Shown here one piece after another: positions 1,753-53,465 of a stretch of DNA of 64,000 nucleotides. This DNA is from a virus. The notes beneath the pieces were generated by a model. That model did no database searches and was not told the DNA's origin. It was given only the letters and a program-made list of their open reading frames with translations. A program made the position numbers and the translations under genes. The DNA is taken from positions 32,001 through 96,000 of the IMG/VR virus record IMGVR_UViG_3300027747_004779; one strand, 5' to 3'. How positions within the stretch are numbered: the first letter of the stretch is position 1; each line of letters opens with the position of its first letter.

Positions 1753-4083
1753 CTAACTCTCTTTTCTTAATTCGCTCTTATAATGCGCAAATCTATTATG
1801 TTCTATAGGAGATAGTAATAATACCGCACTGTTTACAGTGCCTTCTTTTGTTAATTGAAAGATATAAGACATCCAAGTTTGTTCAAAAGGATGGGCCCAA
1901 GTAGTTGTTAAAAACATCTTTTTATTACCTTCTCGTGATACAATCTGCGGCCAGTTACAGTAATAAACATCGCCTGTTGCATAGGCTAGACCCTCAAGAG
2001 TTTTAATATTCTTAAATTCAGTCTTTGGTGATTTTGGATCTGTCCCTATTTCAGGAAGTTTACAGTAATTAGGCCAAAACTTTTCACGTATATTCTGTGG
2101 CACATTATACCACGACCATTGTGTGGTGTTATTACCATAAAATTCAGTAAAAGAAAACTTTATAAAGTCCAGCTCTTCCTTATGCATAATTTTATGAATT
2201 TTTGAAAATAGATTAGATACATACCTGGCAAAACCACTCTTACATCTATCACCGTTTTCTTCTAGAAGATACATATCATCCTCTAGAAAAATATAATGCT
2301 TTGCGTCTGTCTTATCAAAATGCTCAGCAATGAATTGTCGACCGCCACATATACCTAGATTATCTTTTTTAATATGCTCAAAATTATACTGCTTACAAAT
2401 TCTCTTATATTCCTCAGTAGTTGACAAATCTGTACTATTATCTAACAAATAATTTGTAGTTTCGGAAATAAATCCTGGGTGTTTGGTATATGACTCGCAA
2501 AGCGTTTCAAATTGTTTCGGTGAATTAAAGGTTATAACATATAAGCTTGTGCCTGCATATTCTTTTACTTTAAGTTTTGCAGCATCTTCAACTTTAGTAT
2601 TTTTTAAATCTTCAAAAAATTTACCAATAAGACCATTTCCATCAATAGAAAATAAACTAAATAAATCGCGATTAAGGTATGTCATAAGAGTGAAAATACT
2701 CTCCTCTGTACCCATATATCCTTCATTAAGAGTCTGTTGCAAGAGCCCGTAATACATTCCGTTAGCTTGACTAATCGTTTCTTTTGGTCCTCCGAAAAAT
2801 CCTCCTCTGCAAACATATTCAACATTTTTTGTTTGCGCAAGTTCATTCATTTTTGTTCTTGTAAATCCATGTATCTCGCCACCCTCGGGATACGGAAAGC
2901 TTATAAACATAAATTTATCAACTATTTTCGAAAGCTTTTCTTGCACTTTATCGTGCGTAAAATACCCCCAGTGCACAGTATTTGTTATACCAGCATCAAT
3001 CCAATAAAATTGTTTAGAGTTAAATGGGTTCCATATTGAAACGTTATTAAGCATAAACATTTTGCTCATAACCAAAGGGTTGTACATTTTTAATTTCGCT
3101 TGCGTCGACTCTGCCAGCCAACCGGCTTGTCCCAGCCATTCAGGCTTTTTGCGTATAGTATCTGTTATATCAGTAAAAGGAAACCATTTTTCGAGTTCCT
3201 GTAAACTCATAGTATTAACTACTGTATTTGATCTACTTCTGTGCTTCCATACCAACTCTTCATCAGCTTTATCAATGAAAATATATAGATTTACAGGTGC
3301 TTTAAGAAGTTCAATAAACTTATCCAAGTACGTCTGATAAGAGCGATGAAAGGATGTACCAATATCTCCTCTTCCTAGATTCCAAAGACCGGTAACGAAC
3401 GTTAGCGAAGAATCAGTTGTTACGGGAAATTTATTTTCTGTTTCTTGTTTCTGTTGTTCTACTTTTTCTGCTATACTGTTTAAATTAATAATAGCTTTAT
3501 GTGGATAATCTTTTTTAATCTCAGTTTCATCAGGTAAATCTATTGTATATATAATTTGATCATTATTTAAAGTATTCTTGTTTAAAAAAACGCCATAATC
3601 ATATCGAACACAAAACGCTGTATAATTTTTATATGTGTCTATAAATTTTCTATAAGTTAATTTATCTTGTACATGTATTTCATGAGTATTACCGTAATGC
3701 TCGCCTTGCGACGCCATAAACGGCACAGCTATTATAACATGTGTTTTAGTATCATCGATCTTGCTTAGTAGTTTTAGAGAATCTTCCTCACTAATATGCT
3801 CTAATACATCGCCAAAAATAATTAAATCATAGGAGTTAAGATCTATATTCGAATTAATTATATTTTCATTAAATACTTTATTATACTTACCTTTGAGTTG
3901 ATAGTCTTCAATATATTTTGCAAATACTTCAACACAATCAAGATTTGTATAACCTAAAGGTTTTAGGAGATTAGAATATGTACCGACACCAGGTCCAACA
4001 TCTAATATTTTTATATCTGTTTTAAAGTTTTTTACAATGTAGTCTAATGTCTCAGTCTTAAAGAAACTCGTAGATACGGGCAT
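1753..4083 (-). CDS. Fusion: class I SAM methyltransferase + HtrL/YibB-like domain + GT-A glycosyltransferase-like domain
   Basis: N-terminal ILDVGPGVG...YDLIIFGDVLEH (SAM MTase); middle TFVTGLWNLGR...SKMFML...FYWIDAG...GGFFGG...EE (HtrL-like); C-terminal YVITFNSP...YIFLEDD (GT-A DxD-like). Confidence 0.7.
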   Translation of the reverse strand: MPVSTSFFKTETLDYIVKNFKTDIKILDVGPGVGTYSNLLKPLGYTNLDCVEVFAKYIEDYQLKGKYNKVFNENIINSNIDLNSYDLIIFGDVLEHISEEDSLKLLSKIDDTKTHVIIAVPFMASQGEHYGNTHEIHVQDKLTYRKFIDTYKNYTAFCVRYDYGVFLNKNTLNNDQIIYTIDLPDETEIKKDYPHKAIINLNSIAEKVEQQKQETENKFPVTTDSSLTFVTGLWNLGRGDIGTSFHRSYQTYLDKFIELLKAPVNLYIFIDKADEELVWKHRSRSNTVVNTMSLQELEKWFPFTDITDTIRKKPEWLGQAGWLAESTQAKLKMYNPLVMSKMFMLNNVSIWNPFNSKQFYWIDAGITNTVHWGYFTHDKVQEKLSKIVDKFMFISFPYPEGGEIHGFTRTKMNELAQTKNVEYVCRGGFFGGPKETISQANGMYYGLLQQTLNEGYMGTEESIFTLMTYLNRDLFSLFSIDGNGLIGKFFEDLKNTKVEDAAKLKVKEYAGTSLYVITFNSPKQFETLCESYTKHPGFISETTNYLLDNSTDLSTTEEYKRICKQYNFEHIKKDNLGICGGRQFIAEHFDKTDAKHYIFLEDDMYLLEENGDRCKSGFARYVSNLFSKIHKIMHKEELDFIKFSFTEFYGNNTTQWSWYNVPQNIREKFWPNYCKLPEIGTDPKSPKTEFKNIKTLEGLAYATGDVYYCNWPQIVSREGNKKMFLTTTWAHPFEQTWMSYIFQLTKEGTVNSAVLLLSPIEHNRFAHYKSELRKES

Positions 4084-31227: not shown

Positions 31228-32079
31228 CTATTTATTTAGCCCCATAGGGTTAGCAACCGCTTTGGATTGTTCTTCTTGCATTTTGGCAAGCTCTGCTTCA
31301 TATATTTTGCAAAGTACAATATTCTCTGTCAGTGTATTATTGTCTATAGCCTCACATGTAAAAAACATTTTGCTCACTAATAGATACTGCATTTCATATA
31401 TATTTTTTAAATTAGCTGAAAAAAGAGCTTTTAGAATCTCGAATAACGTTGTATTGTAGGGAGATATCTCAATTTTATCAGAGTCTTTTAAACCTACTTT
31501 TAAAACAAGGTCTTTAAACGCCTTTATATTATCTTTACTAAACTTATCAATACGGCTCGTTACTTCTGCAGGAAGCTGTTCAATAATTTTCTGCCTCTCT
31601 TCTGATGTAGCAGAAAAAATGTCAATTTCTTCGTCGCTAACAAACACTTTATCTATTGAGCTGTAATAAGCATCTAAAAGGTTTTCAAAGTAAAGTGCTT
31701 TGGGTAGAGTGATTTGTATTTTTAAAGTGTCAATAACATGCTCACTTATAAATTCTGTTTTAAAATCGAGGCATTTATTTAAAAAAGGCACTAAAGGTAT
31801 TTTAGTTACCGATGTACTTTCTTTTAATTCTATTTCTGGTGATACAAATATACAGCGAAGTAAATAAAGCATACAAAATTTGTCAAAGTTTGTAAGTTTA
31901 TCATAATATTCTTTTTCTATTAAACATTCTTTTACGATTTCTTCAAAGCATTCAGAAATATGAAAGTTGTTGTTGTTTAACAAAAATTTATTTAGTACAC
32001 GATACTGCTTAAATGTGAGTTCTTTGACTCTTAAGTCTTTATCTAATGTTGGGGAATGAAAATTTAAATAAAATGACAT
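31228..32079 (-). CDS. Second gp26-like baseplate assembly protein
   Basis: PTLDKDLRVKELTFKQY...LTNFDKFCMLYLLR...IIEQLP; a paralog-like pattern of 30474..31223. Confidence 0.55.
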   Translation of the reverse strand: MSFYLNFHSPTLDKDLRVKELTFKQYRVLNKFLLNNNNFHISECFEEIVKECLIEKEYYDKLTNFDKFCMLYLLRCIFVSPEIELKESTSVTKIPLVPFLNKCLDFKTEFISEHVIDTLKIQITLPKALYFENLLDAYYSSIDKVFVSDEEIDIFSATSEERQKIIEQLPAEVTSRIDKFSKDNIKAFKDLVLKVGLKDSDKIEISPYNTTLFEILKALFSANLKNIYEMQYLLVSKMFFTCEAIDNNTLTENIVLCKIYEAELAKMQEEQSKAVANPMGLNK

Positions 32080-47891: not shown

Positions 47892-48533
47892 TCAAGCATA
47901 TTTGCTAGAAATCTTTTTAAGGCCGAGGTCTACAAGTCTTAAAGCCTTTTTTGAATTATAAAGCTTTGTTCTATACGTAGATATGTTGTTGTAAAAATCG
48001 TCGCCAATAATAAACCGTATTATTTCAGGATCTCTGCTCTTGAGATTTTTCTCAAATACCTCAAACCCTAAAAGCGTATATATGTTAACTTTATGCTCTT
48101 TTAAATGAACCATAAATGAATATTCATTATTTGTTTTGTGATTAATATAATTTTGAGGGCTTACCTTAGCTTCATTGCAAAAATTTAGTATAAACACTAG
48201 TGATTGTTTAATATTGGATAATTGTTCTTCGCTATCAGGATCCATATTAACAATTTTTTTCTGAAATAGGGTATAGGATTTTGTAGCTTTAAGACTGGCA
48301 TAATAGTCAAGAGGAAAATAAGGCTCGTCAGGGTAGAGACTATAAGGGGCTTTAAAATAGTCCTCAATCTTAATATGAGGGAACTTTTTTAAAAATGTTG
48401 CAATGCGTTTAATTGCAATAAACTGCGCTTCGTCAATTTTTTCAAAATTTTTACGAAGCTTAAAGGGCTTGTTCTTACTCGATCTAGAAACAGCTAAGTA
48501 TGTGTTGTAAATGTGCTTTTCGAATGTCGTCAT
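47892..48533 (-). CDS. Hypothetical protein, possibly a gp59-like helicase loader
   Basis: 213 aa, basic/aromatic, directly upstream of gp32 as gp59 is in T4; IYNTYLA N-terminus. Confidence 0.35.
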   Translation of the reverse strand: MTTFEKHIYNTYLAVSRSSKNKPFKLRKNFEKIDEAQFIAIKRIATFLKKFPHIKIEDYFKAPYSLYPDEPYFPLDYYASLKATKSYTLFQKKIVNMDPDSEEQLSNIKQSLVFILNFCNEAKVSPQNYINHKTNNEYSFMVHLKEHKVNIYTLLGFEVFEKNLKSRDPEIIRFIIGDDFYNNISTYRTKLYNSKKALRLVDLGLKKISSKYA

Positions 48534-48748
48534 TAATTATAGAATTTCCACTTATTACGGGAAAGTTCTTTTTTGACGCGACGCATCTTACTTGGCTTGT
48601 AGTGACACCTTTTAAGTCTTAAAACGTCTAAAACGCCTGACTTTAAAAATTCTCTGCTAAACTTATTAAGGGCTTTTTCAAAATAAGCTTTATCAAGACT
48701 CTTCTTACCATTTAAAGATACTTCTGCATTAGGGTGTTTTTTACTCAT
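48533..48748 (-). CDS. rpsU: Phage-encoded ribosomal protein bS21 homolog
   Basis: 71 aa, very basic; FEKALNKFSREFLKSGVLDVLRLKRCHYKPSKMRR matches the bS21 pattern E.ALRRFK......G.....R....Y.KPS..RR. Confidence 0.75.
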   Translation of the reverse strand: MSKKHPNAEVSLNGKKSLDKAYFEKALNKFSREFLKSGVLDVLRLKRCHYKPSKMRRVKKELSRNKWKFYN

Positions 48749-49070: not shown

Positions 49071-50396
49071 CTATCCCAACGCTAATTTTGTCAATGTATT
49101 AATCGATGATGCACTCCCTTCTGTATCGTTTATATGTTCGTCCTCTGTAATAGTAAGTGTAGTATAATCAATTCTCATAGGGCAGAATCCGAAATTGGGT
49201 CCAAATCGATTTTTCATAAAGCCCATCTTGATAACACCTAGCTCTTTATCAGTATCTTCCTGCCATACACTTAATATCACGTCACCGGTCATTGCTAACC
49301 CAATACTTTCTGAGATAGTTTTAAGACCGGGCTCAGATATTTCATAACCATCTCTATTGAGCTGTGTAGCTGAAATAATAGGGCAATTAAAGTCATACGT
49401 TAATGCGCGTAGTTGTTCAGTGCAGATTTTAATTCTTTCATAACTGCTATCGCCCATTGTTGAGTTGAGCAAATTAACGTAATCGAGAACAATAGCATCA
49501 ATTTTTATTCCTTTTTGTGTAAGTTTTCTTACAAAAGCTTTTAAATGATTGCAAGTTATTGTAGCAGGTGGAAACTCTTTAATAATAATTTTAGAGCTTG
49601 GATTCTCGATACAATACTCGGAAATTTGACTCTTAAGATTCTGAGATTCAACTTTAAGCTGGCCAAGGGGTATCTTAGATACACTTGAACAGAGTCGCTT
49701 TGCATATACAAGCTCAGGCATTTCAAGAGAGACTAAGAGTACTGTCTTGCCTTGTTTAGCAATATTAATTGCAACGTTACCAAGAAAAATACTTTTTCCA
49801 ATATTAGTTTCACCAGCAAACAGGTATAATGCACGACCGGATTCTAAAAAACCTCCACCGATTTTATCATCAAGCCATTTCCACTTTGAGGGAATATATC
49901 TGTCTGTAGAGTTTAAATCATCAATAACACGATCCACATCAGTAAATAAATCTAAACCTATTTCAGTTGCGAGGGTAATACTGCATGCCTTTTCAAACTT
50001 ATCCAAAATTTTAGATGTATCGACTTCGTTTTTATTAATATCATCTACTACATCCATCATAGTATGATATACTGCCTTCTCTTTTAAAAATATTTCTGTA
50101 TTCGTCGAGAGCTCATCATTATTAAGATTTTTATCTATGCCAGTAAACAGATTAACAACATTTTTAAGAGATGTCTTTAGTTCGTCTGTTGTTAAATAGG
50201 ATTTAATTTCAGTAATAGTCGGTTTAGTATTTCTTTTTTCGTAAAAATCGCGAATAATGGTAAAAATAGCTTTTATATCTTTGTTTTTAAAATAAAGTGG
50301 TTTAACGTAATCAACAATAGAAGCAAGGTACGTATCGTCAGTAAGGCTTTTGTAGGCGATTACTGTTTCAAAATAGTCTAAATCTAACTTCGCCAT
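49071..50396 (-). CDS. gp41: Replicative DnaB-like helicase
   Basis: AGETNIGKS, VSLEM, IIKEFP, IVLDYVNLL, SATQLNRDG, ISESIGL, KNRFG. Confidence 0.93.
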   Translation of the reverse strand: MAKLDLDYFETVIAYKSLTDDTYLASIVDYVKPLYFKNKDIKAIFTIIRDFYEKRNTKPTITEIKSYLTTDELKTSLKNVVNLFTGIDKNLNNDELSTNTEIFLKEKAVYHTMMDVVDDINKNEVDTSKILDKFEKACSITLATEIGLDLFTDVDRVIDDLNSTDRYIPSKWKWLDDKIGGGFLESGRALYLFAGETNIGKSIFLGNVAINIAKQGKTVLLVSLEMPELVYAKRLCSSVSKIPLGQLKVESQNLKSQISEYCIENPSSKIIIKEFPPATITCNHLKAFVRKLTQKGIKIDAIVLDYVNLLNSTMGDSSYERIKICTEQLRALTYDFNCPIISATQLNRDGYEISEPGLKTISESIGLAMTGDVILSVWQEDTDKELGVIKMGFMKNRFGPNFGFCPMRIDYTTLTITEDEHINDTEGSASSINTLTKLALG

Positions 50397-50402
50397 TAAT
50401 CT

Positions 50403-50430
50403 ATAATATAGTATTTTTTCTTGTTATCAA
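50403..50430 (-). promoter_or_regulatory. Sigma70-like promoter TTGATA-N16-TATTAT, 6 nt upstream of the gp41 ATG
   Basis: Conserved geometry; the -35 element overlaps the upstream TGA stop. Confidence 0.6.
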
Positions 50431-51095
50431 TGTGTGCTATATTCTTTTAGAAATTTCTCTTGGCTAGCATTAAAGTTTTTATCTTCAAAGCTTAATAGCC
50501 CGGGCGAATTATGCATAACCCAGATAGGGGCAACTCCAAGCTTTAGTTTCTTTTTATTTGCATCAATACAGCTAGCAATATCGTAATGATGAAACTTGTA
50601 GTTTTCATTAAACTTCCAGCCGGTCTCTTTGACACTTTTTGTTTTTATAGAAAGAAATAACCCATCTAATATGGCAACGCGTGCGGGTGTCGGTCCAAAA
50701 TTGGTAACCATAATTTGGTCCTTGCTACATGGGTGTGAAACTGCGCCATGTAAATTGTTACTTTGAAATCCTCCGCACATTAAATGCCATAAAGCTGGTG
50801 CTTTAATTGTAGGGTTAACGCCGCCTGCAAGGCCAACAATATCAAATTGAGTATGTGCTTTGATTAATTTTTCACAAACACCGAGATCGTCAACATATAC
50901 GTCATCATGGAGAAAAACAATATAATCAAAATCATTTAAATGTTCTTTTAAAATAGAATTATACATTACGCTCAGGCCTTCTTTGTTGTTAGCGTCATAA
51001 TACACATCGATATCATTCAACCGTGATAATGATTTGTAAGCTAATGTCTCTTCAGCATTATCTCCTTTTGTTGTAAAATAAAAAGCGATCTTCAT
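50427..51095 (-). CDS. GT2-like glycosyltransferase (Glyco_tranf_2_5 / StrF-like)
   Basis: GLSVMYN, IVFLHDDV, IVGLAG, VAILDGLFL, FNENYKFHHYDIASC, H.SPG. Confidence 0.8.
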   Translation of the reverse strand: MKIAFYFTTKGDNAEETLAYKSLSRLNDIDVYYDANNKEGLSVMYNSILKEHLNDFDYIVFLHDDVYVDDLGVCEKLIKAHTQFDIVGLAGGVNPTIKAPALWHLMCGGFQSNNLHGAVSHPCSKDQIMVTNFGPTPARVAILDGLFLSIKTKSVKETGWKFNENYKFHHYDIASCIDANKKKLKLGVAPIWVMHNSPGLLSFEDKNFNASQEKFLKEYSTH

Positions 51096-51775
51096 GGTGT
51101 AAAAAATGGTGAGTTAGGGGTAAATTTACCAACAGAAGTAATGCCTTCTTGTGTTAAAAGATATAATAACCCCTCTTCTAATGCAACATATCCGGGTTCG
51201 GGTAGAGATGAAAACTCATTATTAATAAAGTCAGCATATAGTGTACTACCGGAGCGAGCAATATATATGTTCCCGCTCTTTTGATTGTACATCCAGAGCC
51301 CGAACGTGCCTTTGAGTTGTGAAAGCGTTCGAACAATGCCTGCTACCTCGTCCTTAATACTCTTCTCGTTTATATGCAACAGTACAGGTATTACAGATGA
51401 ATCAACAACGTTAAAAGCTTTCTTATCCGGTATCAAGGCTTTAAGCTGCTTATCGTTAGTTAAGACGCCGTTATGAGCTATTAGCCAATCTTTATACTGA
51501 AATGGATGTGAAGTTGCTGGAGTAAACTTTCGTTGCGATGAAGTAGGGGCTTGCGTATGGCCTAAGTAATAATTAAAGTCATTAATATACTTCTTCTTTT
51601 TACCGTATTCAATAATTAGCTTATTGTTTAATTGTGTAACGCCTGGAGTCTTCAAAATAGCGTGCAATCTCTTGCCAATCAATAAGCCTCCATAAGAAAA
51701 GTTACCTCTTTTCTTGTTATTATTATAAAGCTTTACGTATTTCGTAAACTCTTTAGCTCCAAATATGCCGCAAAT
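51092..51775 (-). CDS. Class-II (Ntn) glutamine amidotransferase-like protein with an inferred ATT start
   Basis: The in-frame extension upstream of the ORF-track start reads ATT-TGC-GGC-ATA-TTT-GGA = (M)CGIFG; also RG..S.G, LGHTQAPT, HPF, AHNGVLTN, VDS. Confidence 0.8.
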   Translation of the reverse strand: MCGIFGAKEFTKYVKLYNNNKKRGNFSYGGLLIGKRLHAILKTPGVTQLNNKLIIEYGKKKKYINDFNYYLGHTQAPTSSQRKFTPATSHPFQYKDWLIAHNGVLTNDKQLKALIPDKKAFNVVDSSVIPVLLHINEKSIKDEVAGIVRTLSQLKGTFGLWMYNQKSGNIYIARSGSTLYADFINNEFSSLPEPGYVALEEGLLYLLTQEGITSVGKFTPNSPFFTP

Positions 51776-51783
51776 AACATTAT

Positions 51784-51822
51784 CCTCCTGATTTATTATA
51801 ATAAAAAGAATAAATAATTCAA
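51784..51822 (-). promoter_or_regulatory. Promoter TTGAAT-N16-TATAAT plus Shine-Dalgarno AGGAGG, 8 nt before the ATT start
   Basis: -35 at 51817-51822, -10 at 51795-51800, SD at 51784-51789. Confidence 0.7.
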
Positions 51823-51823
51823 G

Positions 51824-52732
51824 ATGAATAAGGATAGTAAACTCATATTCGAGGCATATTTAACAAAGAAACCTGTATTAAGTGAAGCTCCAATATATGG
51901 GCCGGGAGATTTAGACTATACCGGCGATATTGAAAGCGCCCCGGGAGGTGGTTACGGTGTTGGAACAGCTGCGGCAAAAGAGGGTAAAACAAAGACTGAG
52001 ATTGCCAACCGTATTCTTAATGCTGTCAAAACAAAGCTTTTTAAACCTGCAGCACATACAATCGATGGCAAAGAATATCAACTTTATTATCCTGGTAGTA
52101 AAATGAAGTTTAGAACAGAACTAGAAAATTTAATTAAAAACGAACTTAAGATAGGTGGTACAGCAGCCAAGTATACGGCGCGAGTAATTGATAATTTACT
52201 TAACGTTTTACGTGTAGATGTTGAAGGTGGTGCAGCTGCGTCGCCCGTACAGGTTAAGAAAGCTATTGACACCGGTGTACAGGGTAAGCCGGTATCTGGT
52301 GAGGGATCAACACAACCTGCTGCTCCTCAAGCTGCAGCAAACGTTTTCGTAAAAAATCCTCTTGTTCGTTTTATTAAAGAGTTTATGCCGATTTTTGTTG
52401 AACTACCTGATGAAATTACAACTTCAGGTAAGAAAGACTTTTACGAGTCGGATGAACTTCAGAACGAAGTCAAAGAAGCTATTACAAGAGCTTACGACGA
52501 AGCAAAAGCTAAGGATAAAGAGCTTATAAATGATTTCATCGATTCACTCAAACACAAAAACAGTTATATGCCTCAAGCTGAGGCACAAGCTAAAGAAGGT
52601 GAAGGTACCGGTGAAACCCCAACGGTTGATGAATATCCGGAAGATGATGATGTTACCGGTACATTAAGAGATATTGGCGCGTTACCGGGTAAAGTCGGTC
52701 GTGACCCGGGTAGCTTTAGCTACGGCGATTAA
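51824..52732 (+). CDS. Hypothetical late protein (candidate capsid-internal protein)
   Basis: 302 aa; TAAATA 7 nt upstream; N-terminus MNKDSKLIFEAYL...LSEA. Confidence 0.6.
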   Translation: MNKDSKLIFEAYLTKKPVLSEAPIYGPGDLDYTGDIESAPGGGYGVGTAAAKEGKTKTEIANRILNAVKTKLFKPAAHTIDGKEYQLYYPGSKMKFRTELENLIKNELKIGGTAAKYTARVIDNLLNVLRVDVEGGAAASPVQVKKAIDTGVQGKPVSGEGSTQPAAPQAAANVFVKNPLVRFIKEFMPIFVELPDEITTSGKKDFYESDELQNEVKEAITRAYDEAKAKDKELINDFIDSLKHKNSYMPQAEAQAKEGEGTGETPTVDEYPEDDDVTGTLRDIGALPGKVGRDPGSFSYGD

Positions 52733-53465
52733 TTGTTTTACAATTATACTTTTTCCAGGGTATCGTTATTTTATAAGAAATAGGGTCTATATACCCCGCA
52801 TCTATAAAGCCTTTTATTCTCAAAGAGCACGCAGTACATTCACCGCAAGCCTGTTCTTCACCCTCATAACAAGTCCAAGTCTGGCTAAAATCCACTCCAA
52901 GCTTTATACCCAGTTTAATGATTTCTTCTTTGGATTTATCAATTAACGGTGCTTGAACAGTAATTCTATTTCTGCGGTTCAAAGCTGATACATTATTAAT
53001 TTGCTCCAAAAATTCTTCGCTACCATCCCAGAACCCTGCAACACTGTCAGCCTGTGCAGCACCATGAAAAACAGTGCTGGCCCCATAGTTTTCTGCTATT
53101 GCAAGTGAAATGCTAAGCAGCATTAAGTTTCTATAGGGAACATAGTTTACCGTCTGCGGGTCGCCCATTACATCCTTGGCTTTAGCTACTGCAACCTTGT
53201 TGTTAAGAAGTGAAGAAACTTGACATATATCTTTAAAAAACGGTAATTTTATATGTTGACTATCAACTGGCATGTCAACTGATTCAATCTGAAATGACGC
53301 GCAGTTTATTTCTTTATCACGATGCTTCTGCCCGTAGTCATAGTTGACCGTAATTACTTTATCATACTCGCTTGCAGCTAAATGTAACAGTACAGAACTA
53401 TCCATTCCCCCGGAAATAGGGACTACTGCTTTACGCGATAGGTGCTTCTTCGCTTGGCGCTTCAT
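52716..53465 (-). CDS. queC: QueC-family ATP pyrophosphatase (7-cyano-7-deazaguanine synthase-like), divergent
   Basis: ISGGMDS PP-loop, YDYGQKH, YVPYRNL, TWTCY...CGECTAC..R Zn site; FWDG replaces the usual YPDC. Confidence 0.8.
   Translation of the reverse strand: MKRQAKKHLSRKAVVPISGGMDSSVLLHLAASEYDKVITVNYDYGQKHRDKEINCASFQIESVDMPVDSQHIKLPFFKDICQVSSLLNNKVAVAKAKDVMGDPQTVNYVPYRNLMLLSISLAIAENYGASTVFHGAAQADSVAGFWDGSEEFLEQINNVSALNRRNRITVQAPLIDKSKEEIIKLGIKLGVDFSQTWTCYEGEEQACGECTACSLRIKGFIDAGYIDPISYKITIPWKKYNCKTINRRS

Follow-up and report, generated by a model that had tools for sequence, protein, structure and literature searches.

The window analysed here is a stretch of 64,000 nucleotides (positions 32,001 to 96,000) of the IMG/VR virus record IMGVR_UViG_3300027747_004779, an uncultured freshwater T4-like phage record of 157.9 kb with 35.7% GC that is 74% complete. 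Its minus strand carries a stand-alone gene for a glutamine amidotransferase in which the codon in front of the catalytic cysteine is ATT. The elements of this start site are listed below. A preliminary description of the window had named the ATT, the AGGAGG, the promoter and the out-of-frame ATG, and all four were found where it had placed them.

51817-51822, minus strand: −35-like hexamer TTGAAT of an early sigma-70-type promoter, abutting the start codon of a divergent gene
51795-51800, minus strand: −10 hexamer TATAAT, separated from the −35 by 16 nt; the pair scores 10/12 in a promoter scan
51784-51789, minus strand: Shine-Dalgarno (SD) sequence AGGAGG, whose GGAGG core begins 6 nt after the −10, at the predicted transcript 5′ end
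51773-51775, minus strand: ATT (AUU) start codon, aligning with the ATG of MCGIFG-type homologues
51092-51775, minus strand: gene of a stand-alone class-II (Ntn) glutamine amidotransferase; its 227 codons include the start, and the catalytic Cys codon is at 51772-51770
51733-51780, minus strand: out-of-frame ATG (51780-51778) with a 15-codon open reading frame (ORF), found only in the window and in the related loci L001-L003

Read along the minus strand, the order is CAT (start of the divergent gene, 51824), C, TTGAAT, 16 nt, TATAAT, AAATC, AGGAGG, ATAATGTT and ATT, followed by TGC GGC ATA TTT GGA, which encodes C-G-I-F-G. The spacing from AGGAGG to ATT is exactly 8 nt. The −10 box sits 19 nt 5′ of ATT and gives a predicted leader of about 13 nt, and the suggestion that TTGAAT-N16-TATAAT would start the transcript at the SD is supported by the distance from the −10 to GGAGG. 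With such a leader the window allele falls outside the leaderless class, in which the start lies at most about 3 nt from the transcript 5′ end.

By its sequence the gene product is a class-II (Ntn) glutamine amidotransferase. It matches Pfam GATase_6 with 35.6 bits (cut-off 27), and the family profile matches the glutaminase domains of GlmS (E 1e-10) and PurF (E 1e-3) in PDB. AHNGV aligns to VHNGI of GlmS and NEVDSSVI to SETDTEVI, covering the oxyanion Asn-Gly and the downstream Asp, and H101, N102, G103 and D124 are invariant in the family alignment. No alignment shows any change of the Cys right after ATT, which corresponds to Cys2 of the MCGIFG homologues. A search for fused or longer homologues of the amidotransferase found none.

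Evidence for initiation at AUU

In the window the amidotransferase frame is open for 29 codons 5′ of the Cys codon before a stop is met, and this open stretch has no ATG, GTG or TTG in frame. Going 3′ from ATT, one first meets a canonical start in frame with the TTG at codon 31, which is the one chosen by ORF callers. In all of the 19 nearest viral contigs, with protein identities of 70-98%, the codon in front of Cys is ATT, AGGAGG or GGAGG stands upstream of it and the promoter is that of the window, and the sequence of the SD-ATT spacer is free to vary among them. An in-frame stop lies 3-7 codons 5′ of ATT in 11/19 of these loci (including L007-L011, L013-L015, L017 and L019), and in L007 and L008 only TAT, ACT and ATT separate the upstream stop from the Cys codon, which leaves ATT as the only possible start in such relatives. 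The TTG at codon 31 is missing in L012, L015, L016 and L018. Codons 1-28 hold their amino acids despite many synonymous changes (TGC/TGT, GGC/GGA/GGT, TAC/TAT), so the N-terminus appears to be translated. The upstream stops, this conserved N-terminus and the alignment with Cys2 bear out the earlier argument that initiation must be at the ATT.

Database proteins carry a trace of the same start. In a collection of 5.8 billion proteins, relatives with at least about 64% identity are called short, at 174-216 aa (P0002-P0036 and others), with one exception that is extended upstream; all relatives at or below 61% identity begin MCGIFG and are 225-232 aa long. The short calls of the ATT clade are without the catalytic Cys and arise because gene callers disallow ATT starts; as far as the sequences tell, they are the mark left by a start codon that the whole clade shares and that gene callers are unable to recognise.

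The out-of-frame ATG behaves differently. A role for its 15-codon ORF, as suggested in the preliminary description, found no backing in the comparison, as the ORF is private to the window and its 98%-identical kin L001-L003. The site reads ATATT in L004-L006, and the ATG is absent elsewhere. The ORF is probably incidental.

Two start designs among related loci

The comparison was extended by three further viral scans and one metagenome scan to 124 distinct related loci on viral and metagenome contigs, which fall into the following start types.

59 loci: ATT start with GGAGG 8-10 nt upstream
1 locus (L275, decayed SD): ATT start without GGAGG
64 loci: ATG start without GGAGG at 6-11 nt
0 loci: ATG start with GGAGG at 6-11 nt

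GGAGG is thus kept in 59/60 ATT-type loci, with a spacer of 8-10 nt that differs in more than 20 ways, so that the pairing of ATT and SD, which the preliminary description had proposed to check in related phages, is found well beyond the 19/19 nearest loci. TTGAAT or TTGAAA is kept in nearly all related loci, and TATAAT is invariant in the clade of the window. The ATG alleles have the same TTGAAT-N16-TATAAT promoter, and in 31/36 loci their −10 lies 6-9 nt before the ATG, which implies a predicted leader of 0-3 nt. For the ATT alleles GGAGG begins 5-6 nt after the −10 in 30/36 loci, and their transcripts are accordingly predicted to begin at the SD with leaders of 12-14 nt. In a tree of 91 proteins built by maximum likelihood there are 7 switches of start type, 5 of these on well-supported branches, and whether an SD is present changes together with the start codon at every switch.

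Selection on the start was assessed for the 42 ATT-type sequences of the tree by counting parsimony changes, with 27 four-fold sites at invariant residues for reference. Each of these sites changed 9-19 times (mean 14.4), 0/27 were invariant, and they were filled by G in 11% and by A in 33%. The third base of ATT showed 0 changes across the 42 sequences, and GGAGG was likewise unchanged. With this base fixed where neutral sites change 9-19 times, it follows that ATG, ATA and ATC are removed by selection when the SD is present. The comparison demonstrates, at the level of sequence, purifying selection on both AUU and GGAGG, and it is strong evidence that the AUU start would be functional and required and not a tolerated defect. 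The lack of changes at ATT, together with the recurrence of ATT and GGAGG in 59 other distinct assemblies, also argues against an error and against chance. The idea of a translational control point, put forward on the basis of the window, thereby gains support, as ATT with its SD is conserved and selected in the manner of a real setting of translation.

In two ATG-type loci, L100 and L106, a GGAGGAG or GAGGAG stands farther out, at 11-15 nt from the ATG, and these alleles may be intermediates between both start designs. A riboswitch or structured leader was considered and is unsupported, since 51500-52100 gave no Rfam match and the 5′ 60 nt are predicted to be unstructured in both allele types (mean z +0.3).

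Another feature was seen just 3′ of the start. Codons 3 (ATA, Ile), 7 (AAA) and 9 (TTT) are synonymously invariant in 28/28 sequences of the window clade (sites 51764-51766 and 51752-51754, minus strand), and the Gly and Cys codons beside them do vary. The invariant codons may mark a selected A/U-rich region 3′ of the start.

Start signals and gene order in the phage genome

Over the whole genome, 41 starts have TAAATA 5-6 nt in front of them and 13 further starts follow 5-8 nt after the end of a TTGAW-N15-18-TAnnAT; by these distances a leaderless-like layout is the norm in this phage. An SD core of at least 4 nt stands upstream in only 18/178 crude gene calls, as a raw count without a background rate. 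GGAGG preceding an ORF from outside a gene occurs at 2 sites in the 157.9 kb, one in front of the amidotransferase and one, at the far end of the contig, in front of an ORF of 60 codons. The SD of the amidotransferase, held to be exceptional in an otherwise leaderless-looking genome, is therefore so for the window, and the whole genome has one more such site. In the 60-codon ORF the SD and ATG are kept in the relative L290 and absent in L291. This ORF and the genes near the amidotransferase are as follows.

G000 157261-157443 (L289:462-644), minus strand, outside the window: 60-codon ORF with AGGAGG, 5 nt and ATG, adjoining a tRNA-Met at the contig end; no family match
52716-53465, minus strand: QueC (7-cyano-7-deazaguanine synthase family; Pfam QueC E 4.5e-56), a possible partner of the amidotransferase
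51824-52732, plus strand: divergent 302-codon gene of unassigned function, without Pfam or PHROG match
50427-51095, minus strand: glycosyltransferase-like gene (Pfam Glyco_tranf_2_5, 47 bits), syntenic in all loci
50403-50430, minus strand: promoter TTGATA-N16-TATTAT of the DnaB-like helicase, ending 6 nt before the helicase ATG, a leaderless-type start
49071-50396, minus strand: DnaB-like helicase
48533-48748, minus strand: phage ribosomal protein bS21, 71 codons (PF01165, 30.7 bits), its own gene without SD

The gene order, on the minus strand unless noted, is UvsX, QueC, the 302-codon gene (plus strand), amidotransferase, glycosyltransferase-like gene, DnaB-like helicase, bS21, a 213-codon gene and a gp32-like SSB. 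In relatives bS21 is present or absent at exactly the site between the helicase and the 213-codon gene, regardless of start type. The ATG of the glycosyltransferase-like gene overlaps the stop of the amidotransferase (ATGA), and the former is probably translationally coupled to the latter. As the helicase has a promoter of its own, these two genes may form a two-gene unit. Upstream, a late-type TAAATA (51811-51816, plus strand) lies 7 nt before the divergent ATG and falls in the 16 nt between the −35 and −10 of the amidotransferase promoter. About 30 bp thus serve two promoters of different classes, and this explains why the CATCTTGAATTATTTATT block is near-invariant in all relatives. The divergent 302-codon protein begins MNRD..LIFEAY.

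From synteny, the acceptor partner of the amidotransferase would be QueC or the glycosyltransferase-like protein. QueC has matches in the C-terminal part of two long profiles, phrog_1550 and phrog_10428, and the amidotransferase matches neither profile. FolE and QueD are encoded elsewhere in the phage genome. The Gat-QueC of phage 9g and archaea, which serves dG+ and archaeosine (PMC6884629), is alike in having a class-II amidotransferase near QueC with FolE and QueD encoded; it differs in that the amidotransferase here is unfused and has the divergent gene between it and QueC. By analogy the enzyme plausibly has its place in a 7-deazaguanine pathway that resembles the route to dG+ through Gat-QueC. 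No match to PF01702 (TGT) or PF04055 (radical-SAM) was obtained in this 74% complete record, the power of PF01702 to detect DpdA being unverified.

The phage encodes tRNAs for Glu and Thr and two tRNA-Met (CAT), and none of these four has an anticodon reading AUU. Phage-encoded IF3 and peptide deformylase were looked for in the genome and not found. In the search for RegB the control gave no match anywhere, so the lack of a phage match is uninformative. Megablast of the region against GenBank phages gave no match and tblastn distant matches only (at most 32% identity), and the phage UvsX is about 34% identical to cyanophage and Melnitz proteins. A search of genome contigs for a host by means of bS21 also gave no match.

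Interpretation and relation to known systems

Our preferred reading, which we hold to be probable, is that the SD-AUU module both rescues and limits initiation of the amidotransferase and alternates with a near-leaderless AUG design. Translation would begin at the AUU 8 nt after an SD that forms the predicted 5′ end of an early transcript with a leader of about 13 nt. SD-AUU would be one of two interchangeable designs, the other being an AUG 6-9 nt after the −10 of the same promoter on a leaderless or near-leaderless message. The SD would be needed because AUU is weak and could not work on a leaderless message; leaderless messages require AUG and are inhibited by IF3 (PMC8459731), and SDs tend to be stronger and better conserved where the start is not AUG (PMC5622118). 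The AUU in turn would be retained because SD together with AUG would overproduce free glutaminase and the coupled downstream enzyme. Messages with AUU are poor competitors, with a sensitivity to IF3, to ppGpp and to the nutrient state (PMC5499595), and by the known biochemistry of E. coli the AUU start of the phage would be IF3-, ppGpp- and temperature-sensitive as well. The module lies next to a GIY-YIG cassette in several lineages, which would be a likely route of its origin or spread.

Several points weigh against this reading. The 60-codon ORF and one relative use SD with ATG, so that the combination is not generally forbidden. SD and ATT are only 8 nt apart and move jointly by recombination, which means that the switches are not fully independent tests, and a sign test on the switches gave p = 0.06 with 5 pairs. 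L275 retains ATT with a decayed SD. The transcription start and the site of initiation are predictions, and the dose-limiting reason for AUU is something we infer.

The phage start could instead be a purpose-built sensor of IF3, so that translation rises, as for infC, when host IF3 activity falls in infection, the two designs being interchangeable because IF3 antagonises both. IF3 rejects non-canonical starts and inhibits leaderless translation (PMC8459731, PMC9723500); sensing would explain both that AUU is kept over AUG and that the alternative allele is leaderless. No IF3 or other initiation factor was found in the phage genome, though, SD with ATG is used by another ORF of the genome and one relative, and simple dose-setting accounts for the same data. 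Sensing of this kind is plausible by analogy, and E. coli biochemistry leads one to expect IF3 sensitivity of any AUU start, but as the purpose of the module we consider it unlikely. A wider version, equally tentative and in our opinion unlikely, is that SD-AUU and leaderless AUG, both antagonised by IF3, would place nearly the whole gene set in one regime of low IF3 or of ppGpp or nutrient sensitivity, with AUU keeping a leadered gene inside it. If that were true, the choice of start codon would be a tag of regulon membership.

The GIY-YIG cassette offers another explanation. Free-standing homing endonucleases of the Seg type, with GIY-YIG domains, occur in T-even phages. SD-ATT might be flank DNA of such a cassette, persisting as a hitch-hiker or because it destroys the target of the nuclease. 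In five loci (L040, L047, L053, L054 and L089) a gene for a homing endonuclease of 244 aa separates the divergent gene from the amidotransferase. It is on the opposite strand (at 2223-2957, minus strand, in L040) and adjoins the module caaacaggagaggagggtaacgct-ATT, and L275 has the cassette also. The nuclease matches phrog_314 (E 7e-34), with weak matches to GIY-YIG, SegE and NUMOD1. In the cassette loci a sigma-70-like TTGATA-N16-TATAAT promoter inside the 5′ end of the nuclease gene points at the amidotransferase, and the leader of about 45 nt ends in caaacaggagaggagggtaacgct-ATT. L060 has a nuclease remnant of about 100 nt and L267 the same leader without nuclease. The protein of L275 is 96.5% identical to that of the ATG-type L064, yet its locus has the cassette and ATT with the decayed SD; no sharp boundary of co-conversion was seen between the two. 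By their sequences, the SD-ATT module travels with a selfish element in some lineages. In the clade of the window, on the other hand, 0/28 loci have a nuclease there and the leader is only about 13 nt. A hitch-hiker would drift, yet neither ATT nor GGAGG varies, against 9-19 changes at the neutral sites; target immunity would allow ATA or ATC, and neither was seen. Because selection maintains the ATT of the window clade, hitch-hiking cannot explain its persistence. A homing footprint fits the origin of the module better than its maintenance, and as an account of the whole we find it rather improbable.

Coupling to bS21, by which the phage protein would alter the availability of the anti-SD and so switch this one SD-led gene, had also been raised in the preliminary description. 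The bS21 gene lies 2.5 kb downstream of the amidotransferase in the same orientation, and the entire clade of the window has both bS21 and ATT. The link is weakened from both sides by the relatives, as bS21 is present in the ATG-type records L021, L056 and L064 and absent at the syntenic site in at least nine ATT-type loci (L040, L043, L047, L053, L060, L079, L086, L088 and L089, the records being incomplete); the incomplete 79-kb record of L060 is without bS21. Such coupling is highly improbable.

That there is no AUU start at all, the ATT being a sequencing error or part of a pseudogene, or translation beginning at TTG-31, at an upstream start followed by propeptide cleavage, or at the out-of-frame ATG with a frameshift, can be practically dismissed: gene callers do select the TTG and propeptides occur in some Ntn enzymes, but ATT is found in 60 independent assemblies, the N-terminal 30 codons are under purifying selection, TTG-31 is missing in the four relatives named above, the stops 3-7 codons upstream leave no other start, and the frameshift is rejected with an out-of-frame ATG that is unconserved and occurs in 4 sequences only.

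E. coli infC (encoding IF3) and pcnB likewise have an AUU start after an SD, conserved among relatives, and by established biochemistry IF3 would discriminate against the phage start as well. The phage gene differs from them in encoding an enzyme with no evident autoregulatory loop, in having its SD where a leader of about 13 nt is predicted to begin, and in alternating with an AUG allele that is predicted to be leaderless. The ATG alleles and about 54 other genes of the phage, with the −10 box 5-9 nt before ATG, resemble leaderless mRNAs (lambda cI; Caulobacter and actinobacterial genes). ATT was never seen on such alleles here, as the requirement for AUG predicts (PMC8459731), and the window allele differs from them in being predicted to have a leader. 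Compensation of start-codon strength by SD strength (Belinky, Rogozin and Koonin 2017, PMC5622118) is alike in that a weak start goes with a strong, conserved SD. It was described as a statistical trend across genomes, with AUG-to-AUU switches at about 1 in 61,000, whereas the relation here is nearly all-or-none in one gene with about 7 switches. As with Seg-type endonucleases, an intergenic GIY-YIG gene with a promoter-bearing flank supplies the expression signals of its neighbour in some relatives; the cassette is absent from the window and its whole clade. AUU starts, the need of leaderless mRNAs for AUG and the compensation between SD and start codon are thus already known. What is new is their combination in one phage gene, with a near all-or-none alternation, a 5′-terminal SD and selection against ATG, and literature searches for such alternation in phages found nothing specific.

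The database proteins of the ATT clade are flagged by these results as a systematic annotation error, being shortened by 11-50 residues (with the one extended exception) and deprived of the catalytic Cys. The link to a homing endonuclease suggests how such start modules spread. The alleles amount to a clean natural experiment on the rules by which bacterial translation is initiated, in which a 5′-terminal AUG and a 5′-terminal SD with AUU alternate about 7 times and selection removes SD with AUG. They indicate that an AUU start can persist stably and under selection in phages, and the pair of starts, ATT or ATG with or without an SD, would make a simple reporter pair for asking how SD-poor hosts and phages of the leaderless type set the dose of a protein.

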